A stretch of 61,725 bases of DNA, filler included, from Hausera hauseri (taxonomy: Eukaryota), in NCBI GenBank assembly GCA_046269625.1. It is 9 parts of 9 records of this genome, joined end to end, with 100 filler letters (N's around TTAATTAATTAA, not from the genome) between each part and the next. Parts side by side here need not be neighbours in the genome. Positions count along the whole stretch, not along the records: positions 26,057 to 35,144 come from JBJURY010464355.1; 8 more parts are not named here. One strand, given 5' to 3'. Positions 13,801 to 47,759 of the stretch are shown here, in pieces; the first letter of the stretch is position 1, and every line of letters starts with the position of its first letter. The position numbers and the translations under genes are program-made. Under the pieces are notes generated by a model. The model was not told where the DNA came from. It saw nothing but the letters and a program-made list of their open reading frames with translations, and searched no databases.

Positions 13801-14299
13801 TCAGGTTTGAGCCTGTCAAGAGTCAAGAGACATCTGGGTTCTGCACCACCGTGAAGCACAGAAGTATTAATTACCACTGTGAAACCTAAAGTAGTTACCN
13901 NNNNNNNNNNNNNNNNNNNNNNNNNNNNNNNNNNNNNNNNNNNTTAATTAATTAANNNNNNNNNNNNNNNNNNNNNNNNNNNNNNNNNNNNNNNNNNNNA
14001 TTGTTGAGGAAAACGGATAGGGATAAGGGATGTGGCGCAGCGGGAGCGGGCACGCTCGGTTCCCCAACCAGAGAATCTCTTGCACTGAGACCAAATTGAT
14101 AGAAAGTAATGTAATTTCTTGAATAGGTATGAATCATAGACGAATTGTAAGAAGTATAAAAATCATTTAGGAATGTGAATAATAGAATGTCGGTAGTGAA
14201 ATCATCATGATTACCTTTTAATAATGGAAATAATGACAATGATCTCGCCAACTTCTGAATAACTGTGATTGATGATTGATTGGAACCAAATGGAGAGAT

Positions 14300-16250: not shown

Positions 16251-16259
16251 GAAAATTGG

Positions 16260-19200
16260 TAGCAATTTCTGATATGTTCCGAATCCAAAAATAGACTATC
16301 ACTAAACTTAATATCTTTAAACTGGGCACTTAAATCTAAAGCAATATCGTCGAGCTTCCGTTGGGTTCGAATAATTATGCTCCGATGAGGAAGATCGGTT
16401 ATGAACTTGGGAAATACTTTACCAAGGTAAAAAATGATGTAGAAATTCGGTTCCCATCTGTCTTCAAACATGATCTTTTTCAAAAGCTCAGACATATGGT
16501 GATGAGCTTCACTCAGTTTGACGAAATCGATAACGAAATTCGTGTAGTCATTGATTAGTTCTTTGCAAACATCGACACCCTGTTCCCAATCTTCCTTTTC
16601 AAAGTGCTTTAAACTATCTTCAAGTAACTTAGCCTTCAGCTGATAAGGAGCATAACCCATTTCCGTTTCGTTTTTCGCTTTGGTATGTATAAGCATCAAT
16701 TTGAACAGATACCGTCCAATAATATCGGATCGGCCCATTTCTTTGTAAAATTTTCGTAAATTATTAATAACAATCATTCCATTAATGGGAGAATTATTAC
16801 TAAGATGAAGTGAACATTCCTCAATATTATTCATCTGAATGATAATATTTTTCACCAACTGAGCATCTTTCTGAAACTGATTATTGCTATTCAAAACTTG
16901 TTTCAAAGCCCTTGTCATTTCCTCACAATAACTTGAATCAGCCTTTTCCATAGCCTGATCAATTTGCGTAATTAATTCAGTTCGTTTATTGTTCGGATCA
17001 AGATGAACAATGTCAAACATACATTCGACTGCCAAAGGTCGAATACGATAGTTTTGGATCGTTGTCATTTTTGCAAAGATTGTGAAAAATGTTTGAGAAA
17101 AGTTATTCTTCAGAACATCGAGATCGTGCCATATTTCTGTAATACGCAATGCACCGTGCAGTCGAACATCTCCATTGTATCGCCGTGCATTTTCCATGAT
17201 TCGAAGTGCTGCGTAACCAGGTAATGAATCTAATTTTAGCCACGGTTGAATTATGATCGTGCAGATTGTTTCAACTTCTTTAATGACTAATTTTATCTGT
17301 AAATTTTCTGATGGATGGCAACAACACAAACGTGCTTGGTTGGCCTTTTTAAGATGAATCAAATTCCGTAAGTAGTATGGTTTAATTATAACAGCATGTA
17401 GTTGAGACAACGTGTTCAGAAACTGATTACTCTGTGAAAACAACATCTCAATCCATGGTTGATTCATATACTTAGAAAACGGAGAAAGAACAGAAACCAT
17501 ATACGATGACTGTCTCGTTAAACTATCGGCTAATGACGACATTTCCTCATCTTCGCAGGTTGAATCGGGAAAGACCGGTCGTACCTGTACGTTATTAATG
17601 AGACAAAATAATTCGAACACCAAATCATAATTATTCGTCATTCGTTGAGCCTTACAAAAAAGACAACTGTCCGTTTGGTCCTCGATGACCTTCTCCCATA
17701 ATTTTGCATTCATATGGGATAGACCGGTCAATACGACCGTGATTAGAATCATTAATGGCTTATGTAAAAGTTTCGAAGATGCCTCGTCTCTTGATAGAAA
17801 ATCGAAAATATTGCAAACAAACTCGATACAACTCCGCAACAGATTTTGTTCAATTAGCAATTCATAAATCATTTCATCAGCGTATTCTCGACTGGACGTT
17901 AGCCATGACCTTTCATGGATCTGAATAAACTCTAGCATTTTTTCACAGATGTTATCCATTAAATGATCTAAATCCAGATCACGGCCTTGAAAAATCTCCA
18001 AATCTGGGTTATTTCGATTTAATTGATACCGAAACAAATCGATAATATTTTTTGTTGTTTCTTCCAAAATAATTCGCCGACAAACACGATCAAGAAAAAT
18101 ACTCGATTTCATAGTGTCCATTATCAAATCAGATTTTGCCAATGGGTTCAAATCACTCGATGCTTTCAATAGATTGTTCACCAAACTAGCCATTCCATCT
18201 ATTTGACAAACTGGCAACAAAGCATGAATGATTGGACCAGCCTTTTTAAGAACCATTCGCCGTAGAATTGCATTTCCTTTTGTCAACTCGTTTGAACTGG
18301 CTGTGTTCTAATTTCTCTAAATAATTGTCCGTGAAAATGTTGAAATCATTTGATTTGTCAAACCCAGCTGTAATCTGTTGCTCAGAATTTTGAAATGATT
18401 TGACGACAATTTTTATGAACCAATCTGACGCATGCATGTAGTTCAGATCCTTTTTCGTATTTCGTTCGGTAAGCTCTTTGAGAATTTGTTCATGAACATT
18501 GAAATGCATCGTTTCATAAATGAAACGATTCAATTGTGCCTCGTAGTCTGGTAAATTCTTTACGGCATTGAACATTTCTTCCAGTAATGAAAAAATATTT
18601 TTCCCCAAATACGATGTTTTCGTAAGCCTTTGCAATAATTCCAAACTGGCCTCCAATATTTTTAATGCAAACTTTTCAACTTGTTAACATCGATATTTTT
18701 GATGATATTTCCTTTTTTTCCAAATATTGAATCAATTTCCTGTCAACCCCATTGCAACAAATTCCAGCCAGTAATTCATCAAACGTATATTCATTCGAAC
18801 ATAACAGAGTCTGGATATAAAGAACATTCCTGTATTTAGATGCTTTCGGAGGCCTTCTACCAACGGTATCATTCGTTTCCACGCTCCCTTCATTCGTTTG
18901 AGCAAGATAGTCACCCGTTTTGATTTTTGCTTCATCCGTCTTAAAAACTGTCAATTCATATGACTTTTCGAGATCCGTATTGCTGACGATCACATTCGAC
19001 TAGTTTTTGGGAAACAATTTCAAATATGCAACACCGAAATTCTGACTTTTGTTGTTAAGAGATTTGTGATGAATCAGAAATCGAAGGTGTGTCGATGAGG
19101 GAAACTCTTCCAGTTGGTTATACAATGAAATGCAAAATGTCTCACTCCATTTTGGTTTGGAATTGTGATAGTAGATTGTAGATTTGTATTCTTTGAATTC

Positions 19201-19751
19201 TCGCCAGTCATTTCGCGGCAGATGAACCACATTTCCATTTCTATCTCCGAGAGAAACTTCCACTTCACAGTTGGGATCACTTTTCTTTACTCCCCTATCA
19301 GTGTCTAAACGCACCTGAGTTACATATAAACAGTTGCGATTTGTTCGTATCGGTGGTGGATAGTAGGGATTTAGTCCCAAAATTACGATGTTACGATCAG
19401 TGATATCATCGGGTTTGATAACTTTAAGCTGGAAGTTTATAGAATTCTGACAATTGCCTCGGCTTGTTGAACGGTAGTTGGTAATTATATTATTTGTTAA
19501 TGTTTCAAGCGCTTCTTTCTTTGTGGTCATTTGAATTTCAATTGTTTTCTCACCCCTTGTGATTCATTAATGATACTTATTATTTCCGATACGGCAACAC
19601 CTTTTGGTCGTCGGTAATCAACCGAAACATCTTTGGCCTTTTCAACATCTATGGGTCTAATATGAATGAATTGAAATACGAAAAAAATTTTCTGCTTTTG
19701 AACGAAGGGAATATCTTTTGATACTGTCCTTAACAGGACTTTTGAATCCAT
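16260..19751 (-). CDS. DOCK-A/B family Rac GEF (DHR-1 C2 domain, ARM region, first part of DHR-2); intronless, interrupted by one stop and frameshifts
   Basis: DHR-1: EYKSTIYYHNSKPKWSETF...HLRFLIHHKS...NFGVAYLKL. DHR-2 lobe A: FYKEMGRSDIIGRYLFKL...WEQGVDVCKEL...EPNFYIIFYLGKVFPKFI. Spread over ORFs 19527-19751, 19000-19530, 18676-18993, 18246-18656 and 13952-18286. Confidence 0.85.
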
Positions 19752-20527: not shown

Positions 20528-21028
20528 TTACTGGGTTGTCTCCAAGTTATAGCTGTGGTAGGGTTTTATCCTAACAATGCGTGTATAGCTTCCGTCAGAG
20601 TAATACTTCAATTCTGTAGCTTCAGCCCGACATACTGGACACGTTGTTTTCCCGTTGTCGAGTGTCCATTTCTCTAGACAGTCTCCGCAATATTTGTGAC
20701 GGCAGTTATTGTTATCTAGTATTACATATCCTTGTCTCAAATTTGCATCACATACGGGACATCCACTATCTTCTTTATCCCAATCTTCTCTATCTAAATC
20801 GACCTGAATAATCAGTTTGATGGGTTCAAATACAAGGCCATCTCCGTCTTGGTATAAGTATCCGTGAATTACCTTCTGTTTAAGGTTTATTGAACTTTTA
20901 CGCGGGTCACAATATACCTGAATCAGGGTCCAGTCCTCTATGAAATCCTTATCTAGATCAGGAATCCTTCCTTCTATTTTATATTTCTGATATTGTTTCT
21001 TCAGCAATATTCGGATTTGCTTGTCCAC
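20528..21028 (-). CDS. C3HC4 RING-finger protein (putative E3 ligase), retroelement-associated
   Basis: CPVC-x14-CRHKYCGDC-x12-CPVC. Confidence 0.85.
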   Translation of the reverse strand: MDKQIRILLKKQYQKYKIEGRIPDLDKDFIEDWTLIQVYCDPRKSSINLKQKVIHGYLYQDGDGLVFEPIKLIIQVDLDREDWDKEDSGCPVCDANLRQGYVILDNNNCRHKYCGDCLEKWTLDNGKTTCPVCRAEATELKYYSDGSYTRIVRIKPYHSYNLETTQ

Positions 21029-21168
21029 GGGAACTATTATCTTCCCTGTCCTTTTTGATCGAAAAATTGACGTAAGGTAGGTTCCAAGTTTAGTATTTTC
21101 CTATACATAGGTGTTTTCAAATACCTCTCTAGCCGGGGCAAGTTTGATGAAAAACATTGCTTTCTTTA

Positions 21169-21447
21169 TTATCTTTTACTGTAATATTCGGTAGTTATCA
21201 ACATTCTGGGAAAATCTTGGACTGTTTTATAGTGTACGTCTTCTTTATTTCTTTTTCCTATTAGGGCATTGATTTCCGTTATTATGGGATTCCTAATTCC
21301 CTTTTTTAACGGTTCTATATTCTGAGAAGTACTTGGTTGATTTTGTTGGTTTCCTGCCTTTTTTCCTTCATCTGTCTTATGCTTTTTGAATAAATAATTG
21401 TAGATGGATAATGTTTTCCTAGGTTGTGGTTCCTCTTCCAATTTCAT
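21169..21447 (-). CDS. Hypothetical basic protein, possibly a fragment of a longer disrupted ORF
   Basis: Co-oriented and tightly packed between the exonuclease and RING ORFs, with the same A-rich coding bias. Confidence 0.35.
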   Translation of the reverse strand: MKLEEEPQPRKTLSIYNYLFKKHKTDEGKKAGNQQNQPSTSQNIEPLKKGIRNPIITEINALIGKRNKEDVHYKTVQDFPRMLITTEYYSKR

Positions 21448-21480
21448 CTTTTTAATTATTGTTTCTGGCCTTGTTTTTTT

Positions 21481-22362
21481 TCATTGTTCTTCTGGAGACC
21501 TTGATGTACCTTGCAACGTCTTCTTTTCCTCTCCGATTGTCCGTAATCCCGTTTTGCCTTCTGGTTTTGGTTCTGGTACTAAGATTTTTATACTATGATT
21601 GTCTGCTGATTGAACGGTTTGAATTGGGGAATAGGGTTTTATGTTTCTTCTATATTTACCATCTATTCGTTCAGGGTTTATGGAGCTACGTAAATTGTAT
21701 ACGGGATTTTTAGGGGTCCATTCATGTTCCCATTTTAACGTTATATAAATTTCTTGTAAATATTGAGATCGTTGGCTAGCCGTCAGAAGTCTTGGAATTT
21801 TACTTGGATTGTCGTTCATTGCTTCGACGGTTATTTTAATGAAGGCTTCTGGCGCGGTTGGTCGGTTTTTTCCTTGCACGGTTTTCTTCATTCGTTCTTG
21901 GACTACTGGATGAGTGGCTATTTCTCTAAGTCCGGCAATATTTGCATCGGATATCCCTAATAGCCCGATTTTTCTTTTGACGTTGTATCCTGCTATCATA
22001 CATCCGTAAAGGCGATGGTCTAGTTCCGAACGGACTTGTAGAATATCTTTTCCATTTATCAATTGATCTTTTCTTATACCGGTCACTTCCGCATGTGATT
22101 CCTGGACATGTTTCCGAGGGTTTATGATGGTTGAGTATAATTCAGTCCCATCTCTTTCTCGAATAGATACCTCGATCGGTATTCCATATCCATCGTCTCC
22201 TCTACCATAGTTTGTAGCCAGGATCCTTATGTTCCGACCGTCTTGGACCAACCTATACGATTGCAGATGTTCATCTTTTTCTGCCTCTGTTGGAGTTTGT
22301 TCGAATTGTAGAACTGGCAAGCCTAAGTTGCAGCTCTCTTTATAGGTCACTTCGAACATCAA
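21481..22362 (-). CDS. DEDDh (REX4/ISG20-like) exonuclease-fold protein with catalytic residues apparently lost
   Basis: EVSIRERDGTELYSTIINP...HAEVTGIRKDQLINGKDILQVRSEL...GCMIAGYNV matches the REX4/ISG20 core (RVSIVN..G..VYD.YVKP...TAVSGI.PE.L..G......V...L.G.ILVGH). Confidence 0.7.
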   Translation of the reverse strand: MMFEVTYKESCNLGLPVLQFEQTPTEAEKDEHLQSYRLVQDGRNIRILATNYGRGDDGYGIPIEVSIRERDGTELYSTIINPRKHVQESHAEVTGIRKDQLINGKDILQVRSELDHRLYGCMIAGYNVKRKIGLLGISDANIAGLREIATHPVVQERMKKTVQGKNRPTAPEAFIKITVEAMNDNPSKIPRLLTASQRSQYLQEIYITLKWEHEWTPKNPVYNLRSSINPERIDGKYRRNIKPYSPIQTVQSADNHSIKILVPEPKPEGKTGLRTIGEEKKTLQGTSRSPEEQ

Positions 22363-22427
22363 TTTAACAGGTTAGGCGGCTACTCGAAATTCTAATCCAT
22401 AGTCAATAGTTTCTAAGCCTTTTCCGC

Positions 22428-22808
22428 TTATTTTAAACGTGCTAAATCGGTATTGGCACCCTTCATTACAGTCCCATTGTTGGTTTTTATTTTGTAGTAA
22501 ACTTCACCATCTGCTAGATGGCTAAATATGTCTTCTATTTGGGTGACTTTACTCTGAATCATTTCTTTAAGTTCATATGGTCTGGCTTGATTGTTCTCAT
22601 GCATCGCATGTAAGAAAACTGTGCGGTTCTCTACGGTGATGCCTTTTAAGTCGTTGGGTATTTTATTTACTTTTCGGTATTTAACATGTGTTTCGGTCCT
22701 TAACGCGTCGTTTATTCTTCTGTATATGTCCTTTGATTTGGGGATATGAATGGTTCTGTATCTCTGTAGGAATTCGTCGATTCTAGGTCGACTGCTCGTA
22801 CTTACCAT
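22428..22808 (-). CDS. Hypothetical protein preceded by a strong splice acceptor
   Basis: 126-aa ORF. The minus strand reads TTGTTTTGTATTTTCTTTCAG|A ATG. Confidence 0.5.
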   Translation of the reverse strand: MVSTSSRPRIDEFLQRYRTIHIPKSKDIYRRINDALRTETHVKYRKVNKIPNDLKGITVENRTVFLHAMHENNQARPYELKEMIQSKVTQIEDIFSHLADGEVYYKIKTNNGTVMKGANTDLARLK

Positions 22809-22910
22809 TCTGAAAGAAAATACAAAACAAGGGTCAATCCTGAAACAAAGTATTGTTCGAAACTTGAACCAATTCTTTGTTTGATGGTGAAATAACCCTA
22901 TCTGTAGTTG

Positions 22911-23403
22911 TCAGGCTATTCCATCATTGATTCTGTTCTGTGGTATCATCACTCTTAGTTCCCTCTCGGTGATTTTATGACACTTAATACAACAGTTTTT
23001 AGTAATCAATCGACAAAACGCAATTATCATTATGAGAGCAAATACTGATGTTCCAATAATCGATGTTAATGACAACACTGTCCATTTAGTTAAATCTTCT
23101 ATTTTGGCGGTAGTCGTAATCTCATCCTCTGTTTTATCATCTGTCAGTGGTTTCGTTACAACAATCTCGTTCAAGGTTCGTATTGTGAACACTCTACCTT
23201 GTTTGTTCTCTGCACCCATTTGTATTATATAATTTGTTCTGGGTTTCAATCCGATACATTTGATTCGGTAACTGCCTTTTGGCAGTGTTACCTTCTGATT
23301 ATTGTGTAATGTTCGGCAGCTTATTTCTACTTCGTATTTGAGTGTTTCCTCCAAAATGAACGTTATTTCGCGTTGTTGTGCCTGATATTTTACAGGGATT
23401 ATT
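22911..23403 (-). CDS. Fibronectin type III-like domain + transmembrane helix + Cys-rich tail (5'-truncated type I membrane protein)
   Basis: YEVEISC...GLKPRTNYIIQMGAEN resembles the FN3 L.P.T.Y...V.A.N signature. Hydrophobic WTVLSLTSIIGTSVFALIMIIAFC is followed by RLITKNCCIKC. Confidence 0.65.
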
Positions 23404-25956
23404 CGCTTGTCAAAATTTTATTCATTTCGTCGAATGCTTTTTGTTCCACTTCTGTCCATCTCCACTTAGTTCCTTTTTTGAGTAAGCGATATAGTGGTGC
23501 GTTAATTTTTGAATTATCTGGTACGTAAGTGGCGTAATATCTACATAGGCCTAATCAACTCCTTTTGATTCTGTGGTTCCATACAATCGGATTTTTTATT
23601 TAGCAGAGATTTATCCGGTTTTGATCCTCCTTCTCCGACTATGTTTCCAAGGTACGATACTGCGTTCTGTGCCAATTTACATTTCTTTGGATTTAGTTTC
23701 AGTCCTGCTTGTTCTAATCTCATGAGTGTATTCTCAATATCTTTTAAGTGCTCTTCTTCTGTTTTTGATGCTATCATCACGTCGTCTAGGTATGCGAATG
23801 CATGATCAAGTACCATGAGCATCTTATTCCTCATTGTAGTAAAAATAGCTGGTCCTGTGGTGATGCCGAAAGGCAAAACATAAAATTCGTATACGCCATC
23901 GTGTGTTTTGAATGCCGTCTTATATCGATTTTCTTCTTCGATTTCCACTTGCCAGTATCCCGATTGTAAGTCGAGAGTGGTAAACCATTTTGCCCCTGAA
24001 AGTCTATCTAATGCCTCCTTTACTAATGATAGTGGAAACGAGTCTTTCATCATCGGCGTGTTCAATACCCGATAATCTATACAAAATTAATGTTTCGTGG
24101 TTCCTTTCTTTTTAACCATCAGTATGGGTGAGTACTATGATCGGTAACTTGGCCGAATTTTGTCGGCCTTTAACATTTGCTCTACTTCTTTAGTTATCTC
24201 CGGTCTCAATGAGTGAGGAGGCGGATACCACTTGGGTATTTTCTGTTCTTCTAGGTCGATTTCGTCATTTAAGCCCGGTTTCTTCCTCAATGGAATTGTT
24301 AATCTTAGAGCCTTTGCTCTACCTATGTCTTCTTCATTTTGCGCTATTATCGAGCGGAATTTACACAATAGTTCATAGAATTTGCAATACACTTTCGGAG
24401 AGAATTTGGTTTCAATATGAGGCGACAATTCAGCACACTTGTATGGTTCTGCTCTATTGTTTCTGCCGATACTCTGCAAGTGTGACCCAGAGTAGTGTTG
24501 GCGTGCAATCTTACGGGAATCGGTGCATTGTTCACTAATCTGATGGGTATTCGTCCCGTCACTACTCTACATAAAATGTTGCTAAACATGAGGTTTGGAT
24601 CAATATTGTCTTGAGGCTCAAAGTTTACTGGTAGATCATCATCTTGTGCTAAAATTATTATCTCGGTTCTGGGCGGAATGTTTTCATCTACTGGGATCCA
24701 TACTTCACCTGATTTTCTTTCCTTTATTACCTTTATCCCTTTTATTGGTTATAGTTCACTTAATTTTCCATTATACACATCGATTGCCATACCTCGTATC
24801 TGTTTCAATATATCGCAACCTAGTACTACATCGTTTGTCAACTGATTTATTATTGCAAATTTGTGTTGAAGTGCTTGACCCTTCATATAAACAGTAGGAG
24901 TCCATTTAAATTTTGGCTTCGATACTTGTCCGAATGCTCCTACGCTCCCTGGGTCCGATGATGCGGGCTGACAGCTGGTCTCGCAACGTGGTTGGTATAG
25001 ATTCATATTCTATAAACGATTTTTCTGATCCGGTATCGATTAATGCATACACGTCCCAATCTTCTGTGTGTATTTTAGTGAAAGGTCTCCCTTCTGCTAC
25101 TGTTCCGTAGCAATTTGACACTATCTTTGACCGTTTTATAGTACAGACTCTATATCCATTTATCCTTATTTCTGGCGATAAAATGATATCTTGCCTTAAT
25201 TGTCTTAATTCTCCATTCGGATGCAAGTCGTTGTTTGTTATTTCAGTAACGCGGCTATCAATGAACGCTTCCTGGGGTAGTGAACTCGAGATCGAACACA
25301 TTTTTGGGTTTTCTCAAATTGCTGATTTTGATTCTATGTGACGCGGTATTCATTTTGAGTACAATATTCCGTGGTGGTTTTCTGTTGGTCTCTGGTTGAT
25401 CACATTCATTTTCCGGAGTACTGCATATTGTTTTGTCTTTTCATAAGGATCCTCATAATTAATAGGCTTTTGATAGATTTCTGACCTACATGATACGATT
25501 GATTTGTGGTCGCAATATTCATATATTGGTGCTGTTGGAGGCATGATTGGCAATAGCGCATTAATCACTGAGTACATCTTGTGCATCCTCATTATAGAAC
25601 TCGCTTCTCCTTCCTTAGGCTTGTCGTTGTCTGAATCATTCGTCCGTGTTATTGTCTTCCTGTTTTTGCGTTTATACAGAATCGAAGGCTTCCCTCGTCG
25701 TTTGCGATTATAATACCCGACGTGACGTTCTACGTCATTTTCCATCGATTTTCTTCGTATGCTTTAAGCATCTTCCCAAAGGATGTGATGATCGCGGTCA
25801 AAATTTTCCAAGAGAATCCTGTCAATGTGAATATTTCATATCCGTTTATAATGGCTTGGATTACTGCTTTAAATAGTTAGACTAAAAAGTAGATGGCTAA
25901 AAATCCAGATGCGGCTTGTCCAAAAATTAAAAATCTTCCCCACATTTTATACAGTA
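23404..25956 (-). mobile_element. Ty3/Gypsy-type retroelement copy 1: glycoprotein C-terminus - linker - aspartic protease - RT; breaks off before RNase H; frameshifted
   Basis: Protease ALIDTGSE (~25040). RT KDSFPL..VKEALDRLSGAKWFTTLDLQSGYWQV, LPFGI, YLDD, LKLNPKKC. The end of the contig encodes FLIFGQAASGFLAI, identical to copy 2. Confidence 0.9.
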
Positions 25957-26077
25957 NNNNNNNNNNNNNNNNNNNNNNNNNNNNNNNNNNNNNNNNNNNN
26001 TTAATTAATTAANNNNNNNNNNNNNNNNNNNNNNNNNNNNNNNNNNNNNNNNNNNNACAAATAATATCGACAAAGAA

Positions 26078-26284
26078 TTGCTAGATTTGAGAGTAATTGA
26101 ACTGTCGAACTCCATGAACGATAATATCAGTAAAATAACCGATAATTTTCATCAGAAATTCGACGTAATCGTCAGCAATCCTCCATACGTTCCAACAAAT
26201 GAAATTCAGAATGTTGACTATCAAATTCGTCTGTATAAACCGATTGGAACCGATTGGATATTATTTATTAACCCGAAATACTAA
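26078..26284 (+). CDS. HemK/PrmC-family N5-glutamine methyltransferase fragment
   Basis: KFDVIVSNPPYVPTNEI...QIRLY (NPPY motif in HemK context). Located at the contig edge; downstream exons not seen. Confidence 0.65.
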   Translation: MLDLRVIELSNSMNDNISKITDNFHQKFDVIVSNPPYVPTNEIQNVDYQIRLYKPIGTDWILFINPKY

Positions 26285-26424
26285 TGTGTGCATCGTAAAA
26301 AATTATGTGTGATTTTATTTTTTTGTGTGCGCTCACACACTAATTATAACGTCCTTCAAAAAGAAGAAGTACTTCAAAGTATATAATTCAGTGTTTGTCA
26401 TTATTTTTTAATTTTTTCATCAAA

Positions 26425-27054
26425 ATGAACACGCAAGAGCTTACACAAATTTTGGTCAATGAAAGCACAAAATTAGATGCTGAACAGAGGCAGGGCAAAA
26501 GTGAACAGAAACAGTCAGATGTCAAACAGAAACCAGAAGCAGGAACAAGTTCTCAGCCAATGCTGCCTGTGGATATGGACGCATCAATTAATATCAACCA
26601 ACTGCAGCAGGATCTAGAATTAACCATTTATGACAATGAATTTTTGCCAGAAGAGGAACAGGTTGAGAATAAATCTGCTGCGCCAGTTGAAAAGAAACCA
26701 TCCGTGCCAATTAGACGATTCAAACAAGCAAATGGCGGATTGTACAATAAAGAAGTTCCAAAGAAAGCAGCAATCAAACGGCTAATTGAGCCTGCTATTA
26801 ATCAGGTCAGGATGACAAAACATCGTCAGGCTCAATTAGTCCAGGCACAGGAGGATTGTAACAATACGCAGGAGCGTATTGTCGCAACAAATGAACTGGT
26901 CGGCAAATGGAAGGGCCAGTGTGAACAACGCCGGCAAATTCGCCTCAAGTTGGGTGCAAATGAAAGGCTTGAGACAATGCAGTTAAATCCAACAAATAAT
27001 CCAAAGCTGCATACAAACCTTAATAAAAAGTTTGAAATCCAAAACAGGGAGTAG
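26425..27054 (+). CDS. Hypothetical Q/K/E-rich coiled-coil protein
   Basis: ~210-aa ORF from ATG 26425 with no recognisable domain. Confidence 0.45.
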   Translation: MNTQELTQILVNESTKLDAEQRQGKSEQKQSDVKQKPEAGTSSQPMLPVDMDASININQLQQDLELTIYDNEFLPEEEQVENKSAAPVEKKPSVPIRRFKQANGGLYNKEVPKKAAIKRLIEPAINQVRMTKHRQAQLVQAQEDCNNTQERIVATNELVGKWKGQCEQRRQIRLKLGANERLETMQLNPTNNPKLHTNLNKKFEIQNRE

Positions 27055-27381
27055 ACGACTGCTGAACATCAGACGGTGGATTTAGAAAGAAAATTTGAAA
27101 AAGCAGATTGAGCACCTGCAAAAAGTGACGATGGAGCAGGCCAAAATCATTACTGAACTCCGCCAAATAGTGTCAAATGGAAGAAACAAAAAGAAAATAC
27201 TCGGAACATTTTATTTGGACGACGTAACGAATAAGGTTGTTGTTTTATAATTACTTTACAACAAATTTTACAATCATTTTAGAAGCAAATTCGTTGAAGT
27301 GTCATTTCTGTAAACAAATGTGCCAAAAATGTTGTCACGTTCGCCCGAGAAATTAAAAAAATTGAAGAAAAAGAAATTGAC

Positions 27382-28058
27382 CTTTTTGATCTTCCTAAAG
27401 TTTTCGCTCTCTATTTTAATATCGTTAATGGGATCTAGCAGTGGAAGATCTTCAACTCTGACAGACGGCGACTTATTTGCTTCCCTTAATTCTACAGTCG
27501 ATGAAGAGAATTTATCCTTTATCTTCGCAATTGTTTGCATTACAGTTTCTCGGTTGCTAGACCGTAAGAGATCCTGCGGCATCAGAATTCGAATCACACT
27601 TAGCGAACTAATGCTTGCAAATTTTAATGATACAACTTCAGCAGACACGGCTTCGCCCGGTCGAGGTGCTCTTATAGGGGCTTTTTTATTGTCATGGGGT
27701 CTGGCAGCTACTGCCAATAAACACTCAACCAAATAGAATGTATCTTCGGGTGCTGAATTAGGAAATTTGGTCAGCGGTGGTTGTTGTCGTCTTATATTGA
27801 CGACTGCACCCCAACCGAAATCATCATTTTCACGTTTGACCTAAGAGCTTCAAATATTTCCGGTAAAAATTTAAAATCTGCAAACTTTAATTAATCGTCC
27901 CGGTTGTAGAAAATTTACAAGTCTGATGGATTTTCGAATGTAATCCATTTCTTTATCATAAGCCAGTTGAAGTGCTTCATCCAGCTTATAATATGAAGAA
28001 ACGATTTCTTCATGTTCGATACGGATTTTTATAAAATCTTCATTTAGTAGTCTCAATC
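27382..28058 (-). CDS. MTREX: MTR4/SKIV2L2 RNA helicase arch/KOW region, two exons (28058-27886, 27840-27382) with a 45-nt intron
   Basis: YYKL...FLQPGRLIK|VKRENDDFGWGAVVN...ISSLSVIRILMPQDL...LPLLDPINDIKI match MTR4. GT..AG intron at 27885-27841. Confidence 0.85.
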
Positions 28059-29392
28059 CTGAAAAAAAAAGAAAACCGTTGAGAATGTAAGCCGTGCTTA
28101 TTTGTACATAATTATTTGACATAATTAACAAAACAAATCCTATGGTTTTCACTAATTTTTAATTCATTTAAAACATTAGTAGAAGTACATAAATAAAAAC
28201 CGATTTATAAGGACCAGGCCACGAAATGTTAAACATCACTTTTGACACAAAAGTAATATACTTATCAACAGTCATTAGAAATTCAGTTTAGATTATTAAA
28301 AATCTCAAAAAATGACAACTTTTCAAAATTGATAAAGCATTTTGATTCTTGAGAAAGCCGGGAACAATCAAGCTAAATTCAAGAAACATCAAACAAAATT
28401 TTGAATTATTTAAGTCGTGAGGACAACAATTTAATGAATTCGATATCACAATGTGAGAAGCAGAACCATTTTGGTTAGAGCAGTAAAAACACAGTTGGAA
28501 AGTAGAATCGTAGCTGGTACAAGATGTTTCAATGTCAGTTTCAATTTTTTAACTTGTAACGTTTAGTTGACCTAAGACACAATATTTAGATATGACTTAA
28601 GGAAATAATTTGTAGTTAATAAACATGTTTGAAATGATTTCAACGTTGCAAAAATCGGTAATGAAGGAATTTTAATTTGTTTACCAATTAAAAAATGAAA
28701 ATTATTCCATATGAACAACGTTTTGTTCAAATGTTACTTTGGGAATTTTCGACATCTCCAGGGAGATTAATTGTCACATAATCACACGAGTGTCAGTAAT
28801 AGTGCAGGAAATAATTATTCGAAATCTATTATTTTCTGAATTTTTCCATCTAATTTATTTCTATTCAAGGTAGTGTATTGTAATGACTAACAAAGTTAAA
28901 ACAGACCAACACAAACATTTAGCCAAGTAAAGCGTGACTATGCAATTTTTCACAACCAACAGAAAGTCGTAGTAGCATGTACCGACTAGAACGGTAAATA
29001 AAAATTTTTGCTAATTTTAAGATTTTCACCACTGTTCAAAATACAAAGACACATTATTAGATACTTGAAGAATGACACAAGTTTTGTAATCATATAAAAC
29101 GGTATTAACCAATATCAGGTTGCCGATATTTCGCATTCTACTCTTTTCTTGAACGCATATGAAAAGTAGAACTGTACCAGACATATCCTGCGTTTAAATT
29201 TTAAAATGTTTACTCCGCTACGCTCTTCTAGCATACATGGCATATAAACAACGTATACATCTAATGATTATGGAGTCCTTTGATTATGGAGACTTTAAAA
29301 TAACAAATTCGGGTATATGTGCTCATTTTTAAGTATTTAAAAGATATTTTTTATATAATTTTTTTGAGACAAAGAAATGAACATGTAATAAT

Positions 29393-29707
29393 TTATTGGT
29401 AGTCATATAAAATATCAACATATAATTGTTCCACAAGGGGATTAATGTCTATGAGATATAAATAGTCCAGCCATTTTTTTAGTTTCTTGGATTCGTGGAT
29501 CTCTTGTAGAATATCCAGTCTTTCGTTTAATAGTTTAATTCTTTTGAACCAAGAATTTGGTCCCAGGAAAGTATCCTCGTATTCTATGTCGGAATTTAGT
29601 TGACGTAGTTTTGTTTTTAAATTTTTCCTATTTGTATTATTTTCCTCAATGTAGTAGATGATTTTAGGCATCCACCATTTAGATGTCTGATCTGCAAAAG
29701 GAGCCAT
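29393..29707 (-). CDS. Orphan ORF divergent from Rep in the CRESS-like unit
   Basis: 104 aa. The stop is embedded in AATAAA, and a candidate 42-nt GT..AG intron (29749-29708) ends immediately before the ATG. Confidence 0.55.
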   Translation of the reverse strand: MAPFADQTSKWWMPKIIYYIEENNTNRKNLKTKLRQLNSDIEYEDTFLGPNSWFKRIKLLNERLDILQEIHESKKLKKWLDYLYLIDINPLVEQLYVDILYDYQ

Positions 29708-29972
29708 CTAATGATATTTTATTATTAATAATGAAAAGGAAATAATTACTTCAATTTTTCAAATAGATGATTTTAGAAACAAATGAATTAAATTTAATAA
29801 ATATAACTATATATTTTGTAATTTGTTTATTCCAGGAATCATGTGCTTTATTTAGCCCCTGTAGTCTTTGTTTGAAATAAATACACTACTTACTTTTGTA
29901 AGTAGATAATAAATAGTGTATACTCATATTCTTTTTTTAGGATGATAAAGAAGTAGAATATTATGTGTAGAA

Positions 29973-30038
29973 TGAGAATGAGCAACCAATAGAAATAGAG
30001 CTATATATAGAGCTAATACTATTGGTTGCTCATTCTCA
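29973..30038. promoter_or_regulatory. Stem-loop, putative rolling-circle origin
   Basis: Perfect 20-bp inverted repeat TGAGAATGAGCAACCAATAG (29973-29992) / CTATTGGTTGCTCATTCTCA (30019-30038) with a 26-nt loop. TAGTATTAG lies on the minus strand at 30013-30021. Confidence 0.65.
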
Positions 30039-30194
30039 AATAATGAGAGAAATTGTTGTTGGTCATTTATATGATAAAGCAAATGAATAATTAATCATTA
30101 TTTTGTTTATTTTTGTACTTTAATGGCATAAAGGTATATATGAGATGTTGTGTAAATTTGATTTTAATTTATACAACATTTCATATTTTTCATT

Positions 30195-31780
30195 ATGTCA
30201 CAGACGTCATCTCAGTTAATGTCTCGTTCGGAACGAAATGAGCAAGTAGGATTTTTATTATTTATATTATTATTTTTATTGTTATTAAGGGATATCGTAA
30301 TAATTTCACTGTGTCGAATGCAGTTAATGGTCAATATGTGCGATTATTTTTGAATTGTAATGATGATCATGCCAGAGCCTTACAGTATCGCTTTCCAGAA
30401 CCAATAAATTATTTGATTGTGCCACCGGAAGGAGCAACATTTCGCCATTTCATGGCTGTGATGAAATTCGATGAAAATATTGATTTATGTAATTACATTG
30501 GTAATTTTATACGGCTTGTTTTATTGTATAAATTTTATATGAAGGTGGTGGAAGATACGTCTTCCTCTGGTTTCCACCATCTTCATTTTCTTTTTTATTT
30601 GCGCAACCCTATGCGGTTGCGTCGTTTTCGTGTTCTTTTTGGATTTAATTTTCTTATCCCGTTTAGGAGTGATATCTATGGGGTTTATAAATATCATAAT
30701 AAGGATATCACTCCTAATGTTTTTTCTATGCAAATCGGTAGTCCCCCTATAGATATTAACAAAGAAAACACCTCACGTAAGGCCCTATATCGTATGTTTG
30801 ACGATGCTCCCTCGGTCGGAGAAGCTATGTTTATAATGAAAGAAGGTGACCGAGCGGAGTACGTCACAAGGCATAAAATGTTACAATCATACGTTAACAG
30901 TAAATTTAAACCTTAAATTAATGTTAATGAGCAATATGTCTTCACTCTTTCACCTATCGATTTCCGCCTTGATAAAGGTGTTAATACCGCGTTACTATTT
31001 GGAAGTAGTAACATAGGGAAGACATGTTATGCCATGTCTCATGGGAAGAACCCATTAATTTTACATTCATTGCATGACACTCCTTCTGAGTGGTCATCTG
31101 AATATGATATAATTATTTTTGACGATGTCGGGTTTAGCGATGTCTGCCCGGACATTTTCTTAGCAATAGTGCAATGTAACCACGTACACGACAATAGGTC
31201 AATACGTGGGTTATATAAAAGTGTTGTGGTACCATCTTCGGTACGGGTTATTTTTACATATAATTCGCAGTCATCCTTTTGGCCTCGAAGGATAGACTTA
31301 TCCCAAAAGGAGGCGTGTATGAAAAGGTGTCTCCTGTACGATTTAGGAGATTTTATGCTCTACCGTACAGGGGAGAGTCGAGACCGCTTTATTCAAGAAA
31401 ATCGAGTTGATTTTCGTCGAATAGCTGATGAGTTTGTGGAGCCACCTATTATTCCTGTTGTCTTGCCTGTAAATGATTCTCTTCCATCTGGAATTCCTGT
31501 TGTTATACCACCACATGAATCTTTAACTGTTACTATTGATGATGATAGTGAAGGGGACTACCGAGATGATAGTTTATTTACTTCTCCTATTGATGTACAA
31601 AATGTAAGTAATTATCGCCCTGTTTATCACAGGGAAGTTTTATCGCCGTTTCACATGTGTAGTGAACGGTGTTATGTGCCACCGCATGTTGATTATCTTA
31701 ACACCGGTAGCAGTGCCGGTAGTGTAAATACTGCACCTGCGTATGTACGGTATCGCGATATCGATGTATGCTGCCGATAG
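30195..31780 (+). CDS. rep: CRESS-DNA-virus-like Rep (HUH endonuclease + SF3 helicase), spliced, with one in-frame TAA
   Basis: Exon 30195-30245 and intron 30246-30289. Motif I FTVSN, motif II HHLHFLF, motif III YKYHNKD. In-frame TAA at 30914-30916. Walker A GSSNIGKT, Walker B IIIFDD, motif C VIFTYN, Arg-finger-like ACMKRC. Confidence 0.85.
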
Positions 31781-32328
31781 CATGTGCAAGCATTTGAAGA
31801 ATATAGAATATAGACAAAATTTGCTTCCAGAAGAACATACCGATATGGAGCATATTGTCAGATTAGCTGCCTATAATTGCAATATAATGAAAAAGCTTCT
31901 GTGCCAATATGATAAATTGTGTGGCGATTATGGGATAGATGAACCGTTACATTTATGTAGCGTTCTGAAATCGTACGTCGAACATCCGGAAGTTAAGGAT
32001 ATTTTTGCCAGTCCTCATGTGCTTGCGGAAGATATTTGCGATAATTTACATCGCAACGAAATCCTTTGTTCTCAATCGCCTTTCCCAATATATGATTGGG
32101 GCAATGATTGCCTAATATGTTTTGGAATTCGAGGTAAAAAATGTCAAGGTATTTAATTATTCTATGTTTGATTTATATTAATTAGGTAAATGGCTCGATC
32201 CACGCATAGTGATGCGTCCAGTCGGCTCTCCACCCCTCCCGACAGTTCATGAAGATGAAGCTACTGATGATGCTAGTGAAGGTGGTAATGCTACAGACGA
32301 TACTGAACCCATGTCTAGTTTTGTTTAA
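31743..32328 (+). CDS. Orphan Cys/His-rich protein with acidic tail, two exons (intron 32149-32185)
   Basis: Removing the 37-nt GTATTT..ATTAG intron extends the ORF in frame (..KKCQG KWLDPRIVMRPVGSPPLP..DDTEPMSSFV*). The stop overlaps AATAAA (32327-32332). Confidence 0.6.
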
Positions 32329-32559
32329 TAAAGTTTAGGTGTTTCATAAAGTCTTTGTTCATTTTTATCTTTGTTCGTAATTTGAGTTTACATGTCTTTG
32401 TTTACGATTTTCTTTGTTTTATGTTTCCATGGTAACGTAAACCCGAGTGCGCACTAGGTGTTTCATATTTCGAGTACACTGCCCCGTATTTTAAGGCTAA
32501 ATGAAATGGAAAAACTTTTAATACAAAACATTTATTCAAAAACAAAATGGCTTTCTGTG

Positions 32560-33560
32560 TTTATTTTTCCTTTATTAGTTGAATATTTATGAGTCTGTCT
32601 GCAAAATTTCGAAATAGATTCTAACTTTTGGTACAATTCAGTGAATCAAGTGTTTTCCAGATTTTACTTTCAAGTTCTATTAAATTTGTATGTTCGCTGT
32701 GACTAAATTTCTTCAATTAACATGCTCTACATATTCTCCATGATATTCAAATCTGGTGATCTCGGAAGGAAATTTATTAGCATTGTTAAAAAATTCTTGA
32801 ATGCTTTTTGGAACACGAGGAGTTGCATTATACTGTAGTAGATGAGACATTTTAAAATGTAACCTCACAGTGGGAAGAACATATTTTTTAATAAATTAAT
32901 ATAGACTGAGGCTTCCGTTGTCTGTCGCAAAATCTTTATGGCGATCAATCCATTTGACTTAACTAATCCAAAAACCATAAGACCTCCTCCTTCACAATAT
33001 CATCTGCGATTAATTTTTTAGACCCATGTGACCAGGTCTGCTTAAATTTTGAATTCCATAAATTATGTCACAAATTACCAATTATCATGTCCATCCAAGC
33101 TGCACCGTTTTTCGTCCATAAAACAACTTCATCCTAGTTTACATTATTCTTTATCCAGCACTTAATTTCATTAACCCGTTTCACTCTATGTTCTTTCGTT
33201 AACGTTATCTTTTGTGTGTGCTTCCCATACTTAAAATCACTTTCGTAAAAAGTTATTTAATATTCTTCAAAAGGCACAGGGCACTTCGATTAAAAGTTTA
33301 TTACAAGTTACTTTAGTCCCGTCTTTATTTGATATATTAATGTAACGTTTTATTTTCAGTTTGTCTAACGCATCCAGAAGCGGTTTCCTTCCACATTTTT
33401 CTTATGCACTCTTCTCATATCCAATATGATTTTTCCAATATGATTTTCCAACTACTCTCATTTTACGAATTATTTTTCGTACTTCGTCAGAATAAACCTA
33501 CTTCACTACAAATAGATTGTTAATAGAATCACATTATCTGACTGTATTAACTGTTTCCCC
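32560..33560 (-). mobile_element. Decayed Tc1/mariner (Tc3-like) transposase
   Basis: The minus strand reads MDEKRCSLDGHD (cf. SDEKKFNLDGPD), LQYNATPR (cf. QDNA..H) and PRSPDLNIMENM* (cf. SPDLNPIENLW). Confidence 0.75.
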
Positions 33561-35419
33561 ATTTCAAGAGTTAAAAATGAGAGTATACATTGATTTATTT
33601 AATTTACTTAAACAACTGACAAAGTTGTACATAACTTTTTGTCTGTGTATTATTGTATCAAACGTGGGAGAAATTTACTCTTAATTGTGAAAAGTATAAG
33701 ACAAGGGATTAAAGTTAGTGTATTTTTCTAAAAGCACTACATACAGGGTGATCACTGATCAACAAAAAACCAATCCGCAGCATATTTATATAGAAATAAT
33801 TTTGGAAATTCTGCACAAATTTTCGATCTGATACGTACGAAATTTTACCACAGATAACTCAATTTTATCTAAATCAAAAAGTCACGGTTTAATTTTAAGT
33901 TGATCGCCCTATAGATCAAAAATACAATTTATATTTGCATATTTTTACAATTATAATCGAATGTTATTTGAGTTTGTAATAATTATAATGTTCAACTATA
34001 ATACAGATTTACATGCCGGTAGGTGAACTACGTCTCTATTAAACTACTATATTAAACTACTGATAAATTACTGTATTTAGCTTGGCGAAATGACTTTAAT
34101 ATAAGCGGAATCCACTGTAATAACTTCGCGTGTATTTTCAGATCACATAGGTTGAAGTACTCCAGTCTATAAATTGAAAGTCACATTAATGTAAAAATTC
34201 TAAGTGTAGTTAAAGAAATCATTAATTGTTCAGGCATAAAAATATTTATCCAGACATCAAAATACAGATCCATTCATACTGACTTAATATTTGTGATTTT
34301 ATGTCAACAAACTTAAAACTGCAAAATTCTGATAACTCTCAAATTGTGGCACCTAGTACTAACTCAATATGGTGTATTCTACACAAAGACATTGTAGAAT
34401 TTTATGAACTAATTTCGGTAATACCGGTCATAACTTCGGTTTATTTTCACGGTTCTAACATTGAACATTTACAGATTATGATAGTTAATTTCATTTTTAC
34501 ATCAGAAAAACTGAATAATAATTGACGTAAAGGAACAGAAACAATTATGAATAAGATTTTTATGAACTTTGTGACTCACGTAAACTATGATTTTGCATTT
34601 TTTTCAATGTTATTTTGTGTATGTTTACTTAAAATACGCAGCTTAAATGTTAATAAACAGACATTTAGAAAATATGACATTTTAAGATCATATGGAAAAA
34701 TGACATTTCAATGCGTTTTTGAATGACTTCCATGACCTTAATAGATCATCTAATGAAATTAGGGACTTTAAGTAAAATGTTATTAAAATAGACTGAAAAT
34801 ACGAAAAATCTTTTGACGATGCACTTAGCTTAATAAAATAAGATATTTTGATTTTCGGACATACATGTAGAGAGAATGAAAAATAAATTCTCCACAGAAA
34901 TCTATTATGACTCAACAGACAGACTTGTATATGACACTAATAGGTTTCTGTTTTCGGCATAATTTATAGATATTAGTCATTGTCGTATTCTTTGGAAAAA
35001 CAGACGGAGCATGTAAAAACCATACCCTGAAAAATACACAAGTAAAAACTATAGCCCAAAAAATTATTTGAGGCTTTGTAACAATGCTAAAAAGCTTGTT
35101 ACATATGCTAGTAAGGCTCAATTTAAAGAGAGCATTATAATCGANNNNNNNNNNNNNNNNNNNNNNNNNNNNNNNNNNNNNNNNNNNNTTAATTAATTAA
35201 NNNNNNNNNNNNNNNNNNNNNNNNNNNNNNNNNNNNNNNNNNNNCTGTTTTTCATGATTTTTCAAAAAATTCATCCCGATTTTACTTATCCGTTTTACTT
35301 CAAATAAAAGAAGACGTTTGCTTAAAATGAATTGTTTAATATTTATTTAAAACTTCATGACTTATTACAGTACAAGAAAAGTTAGTTACAATGTTTTTCA
35401 TATCAAATGCAAGCATTTT

Positions 35420-41716: not shown

Positions 41717-43147
41717 ATGTTTGGTAACTTCGTAGATGGTGACGACCAGAAACGGGACAGACACTCAGCGTTCTACAAAAAAATTGGTTTTTCTAGAGAC
41801 ACAAGCAGTTTCTACAAACGTGGCCCGGCATTCCTGTCTGCATTCTACAAAAGAGGTGCTAATCCCTTGAGTTCATTTTACAAACGCGCACCTTTACATA
41901 ATCAAGTTTCCTTCTACAAGAGGGATTTCACAAAGTCAAAACGCTCGGTAAATAGGCCTAACTTGAGTTCGTTTTACAAGCGCACACCGTACAACAGATT
42001 TGGAGCGTTATTTGATGAAAACACTCAAGACGACGATTCGATAGATTTCGATAAAAAAGGATACAGCCTCAGCTCATTTTACAAACGCGGCCTAGACAAT
42101 GATGTAAGTTCCTTCTACAAACGGGACAGAGACAGAATGTCTTCGTTTTACAAAAGAATACCCGATGATTTCAGTCTGCCTGATCTAGATAACAACTTGC
42201 CAACACGCGATCTTGACGAGGATACGACCGTCGAAAGGATGGCTTCCAGAAAGGGTTTTAATTCATTTTACAAGCGAGCATTGGCTGCTTTTTATAAGAG
42301 AAGTCCTTGGTACAACAACGAAGGAACAAGTTCTTTCTACAGGAAACGTGGACATGACGTGGGAAACAGCGCTTTCTACAAACGAAACTACGACTCGGCG
42401 CCTTTTGCAAGCAGGTATACTTCCGGATTATCCAGTTTCTACAAACGAGGACTAGAAGATAATGGAGATGTTTACGGATTATCTAGCTTTTACAAACGAG
42501 ATTTTGGTAACAGGGGGCTTGGTTATGGGATGTCTGGTTTCTATAAACGAGGCACCGATAGAATATCCAGTTTCTACAAAAGACACTCGGATGACATAGA
42601 CAATGCAGACGAACAAGATTTGGGAGACAGGATATTTAGCCTTGACACTGTCCCCGACATTGATTCTGCCAACGAAGAAAGTTCATCATTCCCAAAAGAA
42701 CTTCACAAGAGAAGCAGCTCTGCTGATACTCAAAGCAAAATTTCACACATAAGAAATCGTCGCAGTACAAGCAGTTTTTACAAAAGGGACTGGAACAATC
42801 AAGACAGTTTCTATAAGCGAAACCCCAAAGGCTCTTCCTTAAACAGTTTTTACAAACGGGCCCCACAGAACTACCAGCTAAGTAGTTTTTACAAGCGAGC
42901 TCCAAAAGACTATTCAGTCAGCGGTTTCTACAAGAGAGTCCCGCATGATTACTCAATCAGCAATTTTTATAAAAGAGCTAGAGATACAGCAAGCAGCTTC
43001 TACAAACGGCGAATGAACGATCTAAGCAAGTTTTATAAAAGAGCACCAAATTATGTAAGCAATTTTTATAAACGATTCGCAAATGATTTAAACTCATTCT
43101 ATAAAAGATACCCCGAAGATCTTCATGGGTTTTATAAAAGATCATGA
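41717..43147 (+). CDS. Multi-copy neuropeptide precursor (28 peptides ending -FY, non-amidated); pedal-peptide/orcokinin-like; N-terminus probably missing
   Basis: 28 FY motifs each followed by KR/KK/RKR, with acidic spacers and no Gly before the dibasic sites. No signal peptide; the ORF starts 13 nt from the contig edge. Confidence 0.9.
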   Translation: MFGNFVDGDDQKRDRHSAFYKKIGFSRDTSSFYKRGPAFLSAFYKRGANPLSSFYKRAPLHNQVSFYKRDFTKSKRSVNRPNLSSFYKRTPYNRFGALFDENTQDDDSIDFDKKGYSLSSFYKRGLDNDVSSFYKRDRDRMSSFYKRIPDDFSLPDLDNNLPTRDLDEDTTVERMASRKGFNSFYKRALAAFYKRSPWYNNEGTSSFYRKRGHDVGNSAFYKRNYDSAPFASRYTSGLSSFYKRGLEDNGDVYGLSSFYKRDFGNRGLGYGMSGFYKRGTDRISSFYKRHSDDIDNADEQDLGDRIFSLDTVPDIDSANEESSSFPKELHKRSSSADTQSKISHIRNRRSTSSFYKRDWNNQDSFYKRNPKGSSLNSFYKRAPQNYQLSSFYKRAPKDYSVSGFYKRVPHDYSISNFYKRARDTASSFYKRRMNDLSKFYKRAPNYVSNFYKRFANDLNSFYKRYPEDLHGFYKRS

Positions 43148-47310: not shown

Positions 47311-47759
47311 GGAAGCGGACGTTGAACAACATGTTGGTTACCACAATCGGAAACGTAAATGGAGACATTTAATTACAAACGGAAGGTCATCAACATGAAA
47401 ACGCGAAGAAATGATTCTGATAATGACGAGCCTAAGAGTGGAGGCGCCGTCTCCGAGATAGACACAAAAACTATTCCGTTATAAAACTACCGTTATGCAT
47501 GTTACCGCCACTTGCGCCTGTATATGAAGATTGTGTGAAATAATCTGAGGTCATATCAAATGGATATCTATGGCAAACCGTTCAGCCTTGAGGATCCTTA
47601 TGAAGGAAGAAAACACTAGTGTATTACGCAAAGTACACAAAGCGAAAAGAACATCTGCTCCATATCGTCGTTCAGCAGTTGACGACCACGGAATACTTTA
47701 CTCACTTAGAATACCCAGGTCGAACGAAGTACGATCAACATTTTCAAGAGACAAGGAAA

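Follow-up and report, generated by a model that had tools for sequence, protein, structure and literature searches.

A gene for a replication-initiator protein (Rep) was found in DNA of Hausera hauseri (GenBank assembly GCA_046269625.1) that, to judge from its motifs and modelled fold, encodes a genuine, extremely divergent Rep of the CRESS type (circular, single-stranded DNA that encodes Rep), that is, an HUH nuclease with a single tyrosine (Y1) fused to a superfamily 3 (SF3) helicase. The stretch analysed (61,725 nucleotides, hereafter the window) consists of nine contigs, and the element was studied within one of them only (26057-35144). Our tentative view is that the element is a stop-broken copy, likely chromosomal, of a rolling-circle replicon of the CRESS type that would reside in an animal nucleus, would be present in multiple copies and would probably lack a capsid, a reading that is plausible without being secure. 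The original prediction, made from the sequence alone, had described an ambisense unit of about 2.9 kb (29390-32332) in which a leftward orphan open reading frame (ORF), a stem-loop, Rep and a rightward orphan rich in Cys and His follow each other; the two orphans and the hairpin are real, beyond chance expectation, whereas Rep is split by a TAA codon and does not form one ORF.

The N-terminal half of Rep (30290-30913, plus strand) contains an HUH endonuclease with motifs I-III and a single Tyr, followed by a helical oligomerisation domain, and the C-terminal half (30917-31780, plus strand) contains an SF3 helicase, the last ~120 amino acids forming an acidic and Pro-rich tail of low model confidence. 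The full set of HUH motifs (I, II as H-L-H and III as Y-x-x-K) and SF3 motifs (Walker A, Walker B and motif C) that had been predicted is indeed present, and so is an Arg finger. None of the catalytic residues varies in the 26-row alignment A1, where H90, Y128, G231, G236, K237, D272, N318 and R339 are invariant. The divergence is such that the protein, with X put at the break, matched nothing in Pfam, in the PDB sequences or in a word-seeded homologue search, and a scan of IMG/VR by the helicase half likewise gave nothing. An exhaustive phmmer search retrieved 322 proteins at E<=1e-3, 43 at 1e-10 and none at 1e-30 (best 2.7e-16), with identities of 23-37% among the 150 hits listed; in 27 of 40 scanned relatives, Pfam recognised Viral_Rep, Gemini_AL1 or Gemini_AL1_M at E<=1e-3. 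Profile confirmation of the Rep motifs, on which the original prediction had made its reading depend, was obtained from the relatives rather than from Pfam: a profile of 137 relatives, built without the query, matched both Rep halves and nothing else in the 1414 frames of the window (E 9e-18 for the N-terminal and 1e-34 for the C-terminal half), the best of 400 shuffles reaching 1.7 bits.

The structural comparison points the same way. Folding from the single sequence was poor (pLDDT 32), and the alignment-guided model is confident over approximately residues 40-360 (mean pLDDT 70), where it shows an HUH and SF3 core. Its matches in the PDB were the Vientovirus Rep (9pqq, top, E 1e-8), the AAV Rep and the PCV2 Rep, and those in BFVD were CRESS Reps (E 2e-25), it being understood that these fold matches depend partly on the supplied alignment; the alignment profile matches the PCV2 Rep at 1.7e-13. 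A duplicated HUH half-domain was considered and dropped, as model and profile give one domain only (residues 43-131).

The Rep frame spans 30242-30916, ends at an in-frame TAA (30914-30916) between the oligomerisation domain and the helicase, and then reopens without a change of frame up to 31780. In run X1, an independently assembled contig that covers 30659-31192 has 0 differences from the window, the TAA included, and thus the stop is not an error of the present assembly, with the proviso that X1 could itself be the source of the window. The TAA lies within none of the short AT-rich intron candidates, and the residues on either side align with the relatives; on the strength of this alignment and of the intron scan, splicing around the stop in the RepA/Rep style was judged unlikely. 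An altered genetic code is likewise unsupported, because TAG, TGA and TAA breaks are mixed elsewhere in the window and TAA ends are normal. The present copy could yield, as predicted from its frame, at most a helicase-less nuclease of ~225 residues.

The three genes of the unit each have a candidate short intron. A scan for GT..AG stretches of 30-70 nt with at least 80% AT returned nine in the unit, three of which sit at gene edges, one per gene; a filter of 30-50 nt and at least 85% AT, picked after the candidates had been seen, leaves exactly three, where the null model gives 0.27 on average and 7 of 300 resamples have at least three. Two of the three are phase-correct for coding joins. There is no ATG in the Rep frame ahead of motif I, and a candidate intron of 44 nt (30246-30289, plus strand, GTAGGA..AAG, 89% AT, phase 0) would join a predicted first exon of 17 codons (30195-30245, plus strand, ATG at 30195 and a second at 30219, placed by phase check) to that frame and would thus supply the missing start. 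In the right gene the candidate has 37 nt (32149-32185, plus strand, GTATTT..TAG, 86% AT, phase 1), and in the left gene 42 nt (29708-29749, minus strand, GTAATT..TAG, 86% AT), the latter ending directly before the ATG of the ORF, with an upstream exon that appears to be non-coding. Joints corresponding to the three candidates were absent from the X1 joints listed. By their length, the candidates resemble an in-frame intron of 45 nt (27885-27841) in the neighbouring host gene, a fragment of an MTR4/SKI2-like gene in the left flank (27274-28152, minus strand, Pfam PF13234, E 2.6e-24), and the joined, intronless form of that host intron is present in one X1 contig.

The ends of the outer genes had both been predicted to lie in a stop embedded in AATAAA. 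This applies to the left ORF, the TAA of which is part of a polyadenylation signal (29392-29397, minus strand) that is followed by a T-rich tract. The right ORF has its own stop at 32154-32156, outside any AATAAA; the stop at 32326-32328, which overlaps the signal at 32327-32332 and is again followed by a T-rich tract, belongs to a 48-codon acidic frame (predicted exon 2, 32186-32332, plus strand) that is joined only via the 37-nt candidate, and thus the arrangement is found in the right gene only if this intron is removed.

The palindromic hairpin between the left ORF and Rep (29973-30038) has 33-nt arms that are 88% complementary (z -6.7), and none of 200 shuffles was equally stable. It carries a CCAAT box on each strand (29986, plus, and 30025, minus), a central TATATATA, and TA repeats at the apex in place of a loop with the nonanucleotide NANTATTAC. 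The nonanucleotide occurs twice elsewhere in the unit, at 29393 and 30305, both on the minus strand and both in weak folds (-1.8 and -2.1 kcal/mol); this number does not stand out from chance, as 347 of 1000 resamples contain at least two. Because the loop is lacking and a central TATA with mirrored CCAAT boxes is present, the hairpin is more likely to be a two-way promoter of RNA polymerase II than a nick origin, although it could act as an origin as well. Rfam gave no match, and an inverted copy extending beyond the hairpin arms was rejected as being at chance level. At the presumed ends of the unit, no terminal direct or inverted repeats above chance were found (159-539 of 1000 resamples score as well), and end-to-end similarity of the unit was also at chance level.

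Neither orphan resembles a capsid protein with a basic arm, as had been anticipated: the first 30 residues contain 4 and 3 Lys/Arg, respectively. The left orphan (29393-29707, minus strand) encodes 104 amino acids without Cys; when the region was resampled by a Markov model, 3 of 2000 sequences had an ATG-initiated ORF as long as this. The right one starts within the Rep tail, overlapping it by 38 nt, and comprises 137 amino acids if unspliced (31743-32156, plus strand; 4 of 2000 resamples reach that length), its predicted exon 1 (31743-32148) having 135 codons with 10 Cys and 7 His. For the left orphan, Pfam, Atlas (its one large database) and phmmer over the related loci gave no usable match; for the right orphan, Atlas, a homologue search and phmmer over the related loci gave none, and Pfam offered PHD_pln only, below threshold (E 0.011). 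The right orphan may bind metal. Neither matched any of the 1398 frames of 42 related loci. Pfam and homologue searches recognised no jelly-roll capsid gene in the unit, the orphans being short and free of a basic arm.

Evidence for multiple copies comes from run X1, for which depth was summed over the contigs of this one run, aligned at 80% likeness, and is not a copy number. For the left flank the summed depth is 7.4, for the left ORF 8.4 and for the stretch directly left of the hairpin 32; it rises to 116-464 over 29996-31510, falls to 33-78 over 31511-32419 (Rep tail and right orphan), and is 23-46 over an adjoining transposase remnant. The depth over Rep is thus raised 16-60-fold, that over the left orphan is not. 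At one Rep site 31 X1 contigs differ, the present copy itself having a depth of 5.3, and two listed contigs are ~80% identical to Rep, one of them gapless across the stop. This pattern points to many old, diverged relatives of Rep. Of the copy number and termini that were to be determined according to the original prediction, a repetition of Rep is indicated, in one run, and no defined termini were seen. As the left orphan has single-copy depth and Rep appears to be multi-copy in this run, the former may or may not belong to the repeated unit.

Relatives of Rep are almost all singletons from read assemblies. A motif scan with a sub-alignment yielded 18 IMG/VR and 24 metagenome loci, two of which differ from the ordinary circular genomes that make up most of the IMG/VR loci. 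Locus L005 has head-to-head genes, a candidate 56-nt intron in Rep and no capsid gene that Pfam would recognise, and locus L020 (1900-3560) contains a Rep-only cassette with candidate short introns, AATAAA and three 120-bp tandem repeats, embedded in retrotransposon-like sequence that also encodes a Ulp1 protease and the zinc-binding domain of a reverse transcriptase. The Reps of L005 and L020 share 45% identity and group at 100/100 within a larger clade; the query is only 24-26% identical to them. The context of motif II and an F-W-P after motif C are common to the query and the clade of L005, L019 and L020 (including P0005), both patterns occurring together in 4 of 150 hits, having been chosen after the fact. 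L005 and L020 thus show that integrated Reps without a recognised capsid and with candidate introns exist in the broad group, a close kinship to the query not being proven thereby. The hairpin arm motif is absent from L005 and L020; no comparable palindrome is present in L005 or L019, L020 having a TA run only; and AATTATTAC, common to the unit and L005, is at chance level. No plasmid relative of P0005 was found in the searches.

For the trees, rows were self-selected, exclusively from the 150 hits and the 42 loci (138 rows after dropping proteins of <260 amino acids, 44 and 34). The query is the longest branch in all three (2.3-2.5). A phylogeny against Cressdnaviricota, Helitrons and Replitrons had been proposed at the outset; the latter two are excluded by domain content, and the query falls, by a placement that is not firm, between the clade of L005 and L020 and the free viruses.

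Several further observations from the same loci should be recorded. L034 and L035 are further diverged copies that share their data set with L020. L006 (1-4180) contains two diverged units of Rep plus a capsid-like gene in tandem on one contig. L033 (3821-4642) and L042 (3167-4372) have matches to the helicase half in gene-dense contigs, perhaps of large DNA viruses; one of these contigs measures 58 kb, and one match lies beside a Pif1 helicase.

A number of results weigh against the interpretation as a chromosomal copy of a capsid-less replicon. The majority of the near loci are ordinary viruses: of the 18 IMG/VR loci, 14 show terminal repeats that mark a circular assembly, and NANTATTAC is present in 15. 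Support of 92/88 parts the query from the free, capsid-coding Reps, only 70/0 from the L005/L020 side; FastTree groups it with P0101/P0144, and approximately unbiased (AU) tests reject neither of two query placements (p 0.16 and 0.20). The profile test is selection-biased, since the relatives had been gathered using the query. X1 is possibly the window's own source, integrated and free copies are indistinguishable from depth, and AT-rich matches may raise the depth in the hairpin bin. The left orphan is at single-copy depth, and its linkage to Rep rests on the window assembly because no listed X1 contig bridges 29914-30593. A joint of the right end to the left end, as expected of a circle, is not among the X1 joints listed. 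The original prediction of an endogenised CRESS virus or a capsid-less element thus stands with respect to the CRESS-type Rep, the setting in an animal genome and the lack of a recognisable capsid, and fails with respect to an intact unit resembling a circular genome: Rep is broken, the hairpin has no nick-site loop, no terminal repeat exceeds chance and the left orphan is not repeated.

The strongest competitor is an ordinary endogenous viral element, that is, a true CRESS-DNA virus of this animal, as yet unclassified, would have inserted repeatedly into the germ line, and its capsid gene would have been lost on insertion, would reside on another segment, or would be one of the orphans, unrecognised. 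This is quite possible, though we lean against it. By structure, Rep is nearest to the Reps of viruses; the related loci are mostly circular, many with an Arg/Lys-rich capsid-like ORF (judged by eye); for two arthropods, the available text of PMC3198968 reports repeated invasions with up to ~60 endogenous copies of Rep; and Rep introns occur in some CRESS viruses (10.1101/687855, available text). Yet polyadenylation signals bound the three-gene unit at both ends and leave no space for a capsid gene, both orphans (of 104 and ~182 amino acids) have neither a basic arm nor a counterpart in the related loci, the nonanucleotide stem-loop is absent, and a candidate intron in each gene is unlike compact viral loci. 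A true DNA transposon, with an HUH-plus-SF3 transposase and fixed ends, moving from one chromosomal site to another and separate from Helitrons and Replitrons, would account for the multi-copy signal in X1, the host-like introns and the L020 cassette that interrupts another repeat, and self-propagation of integrated Reps is an earlier proposal (PMC3198968, available text); it is nevertheless improbable, as terminal inverted or direct repeats do not exceed chance, the copies seen are only ~80% alike, which argues against a recent burst, and the depth is uneven along the unit.

Compatible with any of these is a different boundary, the mobile unit consisting of promoter, Rep and right orphan, and the left ORF being an unrelated neighbour or one-off cargo. 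The depth of the left ORF, hardly above that of the flank, and one contig of 1974 nt (depth 7.4) that spans host DNA through the left ORF to 29914 would fit this arrangement, but the left ORF shares the design of a stop in AATAAA and a short intron and points away from a symmetric, promoter-like palindrome, and fast-evolving cargo of <80% identity would escape the X1 depth; we regard the narrower unit as quite possible, though less likely than not. An assembly chimera, in which a contig of a free virus or plasmid had been fused to host DNA, is very improbable: the stretch from hairpin to Rep and the right junction are unspanned by any listed X1 contig, but the exact Rep copy has roughly the single-copy depth of the host, and Rep is broken, whereas a free replicating genome should be intact.

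If the element is a chromosomal copy of a capsid-less replicon, the following mode of action can be envisaged. Transcription by host RNA polymerase II would start from the TATA/CCAAT palindrome in both directions, introns of 37-44 nt would be removed by host splicing, and both transcription units would end at the stop-overlapping AATAAA signals, yielding spliced and polyadenylated messages. In intact members, Rep would act like other CRESS Reps: its single Tyr would nick the origin, and the protein would form oligomers and unwind the circle to serve the polymerases of the host. These members would replicate as nuclear circles. The two orphan genes would encode small accessory proteins rather than coat proteins, and occasional joining to the chromosome, mediated by Rep or by repair, would leave scattered, ageing copies. 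It is unlikely, although worth stating, that the element represents an undescribed class of capsid-less selfish elements that combines a CRESS Rep with host mini-introns, a two-way promoter and small cargo genes in animals, cycles between nuclear episome and chromosome, and would constitute a third type of eukaryotic HUH mobile element next to Helitrons and Replitrons.

If capsid-less and self-propagating, the element would be a living intermediate on the path from virus to transposon that was suggested earlier for Reps in integrated form (PMC3198968, available text). So far this path has been shown only for the helicase-less Replitrons and the SF1B Helitrons, and the question would become testable within one genome by a census of copies. 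Should it be no more than a fossil virus, it would still tie an unclassified Rep lineage of great depth to an animal host and show that such elements evade Pfam-based annotation.

The host is by all signs an animal, judged from the protein domains of the window (MTR4-like, I/LWEQ, DOCK-C2 and reverse transcriptase, all by Pfam) and from an ORF that resembles a neuropeptide precursor. Host genes share the contig with Rep, the listed X1 pieces bridging host DNA up to 29914 only. To the right and outside of the element lies a decayed transposase remnant (32480-34300, minus strand, limits approximate) with a translated motif of the type PRSPDLN..EN, which we take to be of the Tc1/mariner family. 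Between the right polyadenylation signal and this remnant, a 13-nt direct repeat (32336-32348 and 32457-32469) and a small GC-rich palindrome of weak fold (~32446-32457) are visible by eye and may mark the right end of the element. An ORF of 219 amino acids without annotation (26350-27270, plus strand), in a stretch whose summed X1 depth is 100-1000, marks a further repeat family on the same contig. One X1 contig (depth 10.9) joins 28136 to 29811 with 9 letters between them, omitting left flank and left ORF; either a spurious match of AT-rich sequence or an allele that differs in structure could explain this.

Elsewhere in the window, the nine contigs are separated by spacers of the form N44-TTAATTAATTAA-N44, with an additional N10 gap at 58121, and neighbours across the spacers are unrelated. 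The ORF of 476 amino acids at 41717-43147 (plus strand), presumably a neuropeptide precursor, encodes dozens of short peptides that end in S-x-F-Y before KR, without an amidation Gly; it has no Pfam match, and the S-x-F-Y motif was not found in the literature. A Ser/Thr/Glu-rich, mucin-like frame of ~1780 codons on a 45-bp tandem repeat occupies 1281-6617 (minus strand). The DOCK-like coding stretch at 14000-19563 (minus strand, DOCK-C2) is intron-free and broken and passes into an unrelated-looking helical region, as a processed copy or a chimeric contig would. Two decayed elements resembling long-terminal-repeat retrotransposons, with reverse transcriptase and long accessory frames, are located at 20528-25763 (minus strand, including a RING-finger ORF at 20528-21028) and 43338-49813 (plus strand).

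Among known systems, the element is closest in organisation to the CRESS-DNA viruses (Cressdnaviricota; PCV2 7lar, Vientovirus 9pqq), with which it shares a Y1 HUH nuclease, an oligomerisation domain and an SF3 helicase in one frame as well as an ambisense layout of about 3 kb. In these viruses, the Y1 HUH domain nicks and religates single-stranded DNA, the oligomerisation domain forms a ring and the SF3 helicase unwinds the replicative form (available text of PMC6668415 and PMC10288648). Unlike them, it has no capsid-like ORF, introns are predicted in three genes, and Rep has additional N- and C-terminal extensions and only 23-37% identity to the listed relatives; of the features by which Cressdnaviricota are recognised, the nonanucleotide stem-loop (tested as NANTATTAC, other nonamers being possible) and an intact Rep frame (broken at 30914-30916) are both lacking. 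With the clade of L005, L019, L020 and P0005 it has in common the motif II context and F-W-P, and with L005 and L020 also candidate short introns and the lack of a recognised capsid, but it is not placed within that clade and shares no accessory gene with it. PEVE, the extrachromosomal virus-like element of planarians, reportedly has a circovirus-like Rep and no known capsid, and is said to measure ~7.5 kb, with two regions bearing inverted repeats and a second, E1-like helicase; by comparison of descriptions only, neither that size nor such repeats nor an E1-like helicase is seen here. PEVE (with its PIVE repeats) is described as an animal nuclear element with replication genes of the single-stranded DNA virus type that is extrachromosomal and was not found integrated (PMC3198968, available text).

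Endogenous Reps in host DNA (Liu et al. 2011, PMC3198968) are, in the available text, degenerate, multi-copy in some invertebrates and sometimes located inside transposons; the present element shares the degenerate Rep in host DNA and differs in retaining a promoter, polyadenylation signals and two orphan genes beside it, and the word "intron" does not occur in the main text of that paper. Rep introns have been described in genomoviruses, some geminiviruses and circoviruses, at positions other than those found here (10.1101/687855, available text). Alphasatellites and other Rep-only circles also have a Rep without a capsid (PMC6186406, available text), but these are free circles with a nonanucleotide origin that use the capsid of a helper, whereas the element is likely chromosomal, larger and equipped with two extra genes. 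With Replitrons and Helitrons, both eukaryotic multi-copy elements, it has the HUH nuclease in common. Replitrons are Y1, CRESS-related and without helicase and have short terminal direct repeats, and Helitrons have a Y2 Rep and an SF1B helicase (PMC10288648, available text); the SF3 helicase rules out the former, terminal direct repeats not exceeding chance at the presumed ends, and the single Tyr together with SF3 in place of a Pif1-like SF1B helicase rules out the latter. No description of an intron-bearing, capsid-less HUH-SF3 family of animals was found in the literature, most subscription journals, Repbase and supplements not being covered. On present tests, the element would work like a CRESS replicon and should not be filed as a virus of the Cressdnaviricota, a Replitron or a Helitron; endogenous multi-copy Reps are already known, and what appears to be new is the combination of divergence, introns and cargo.

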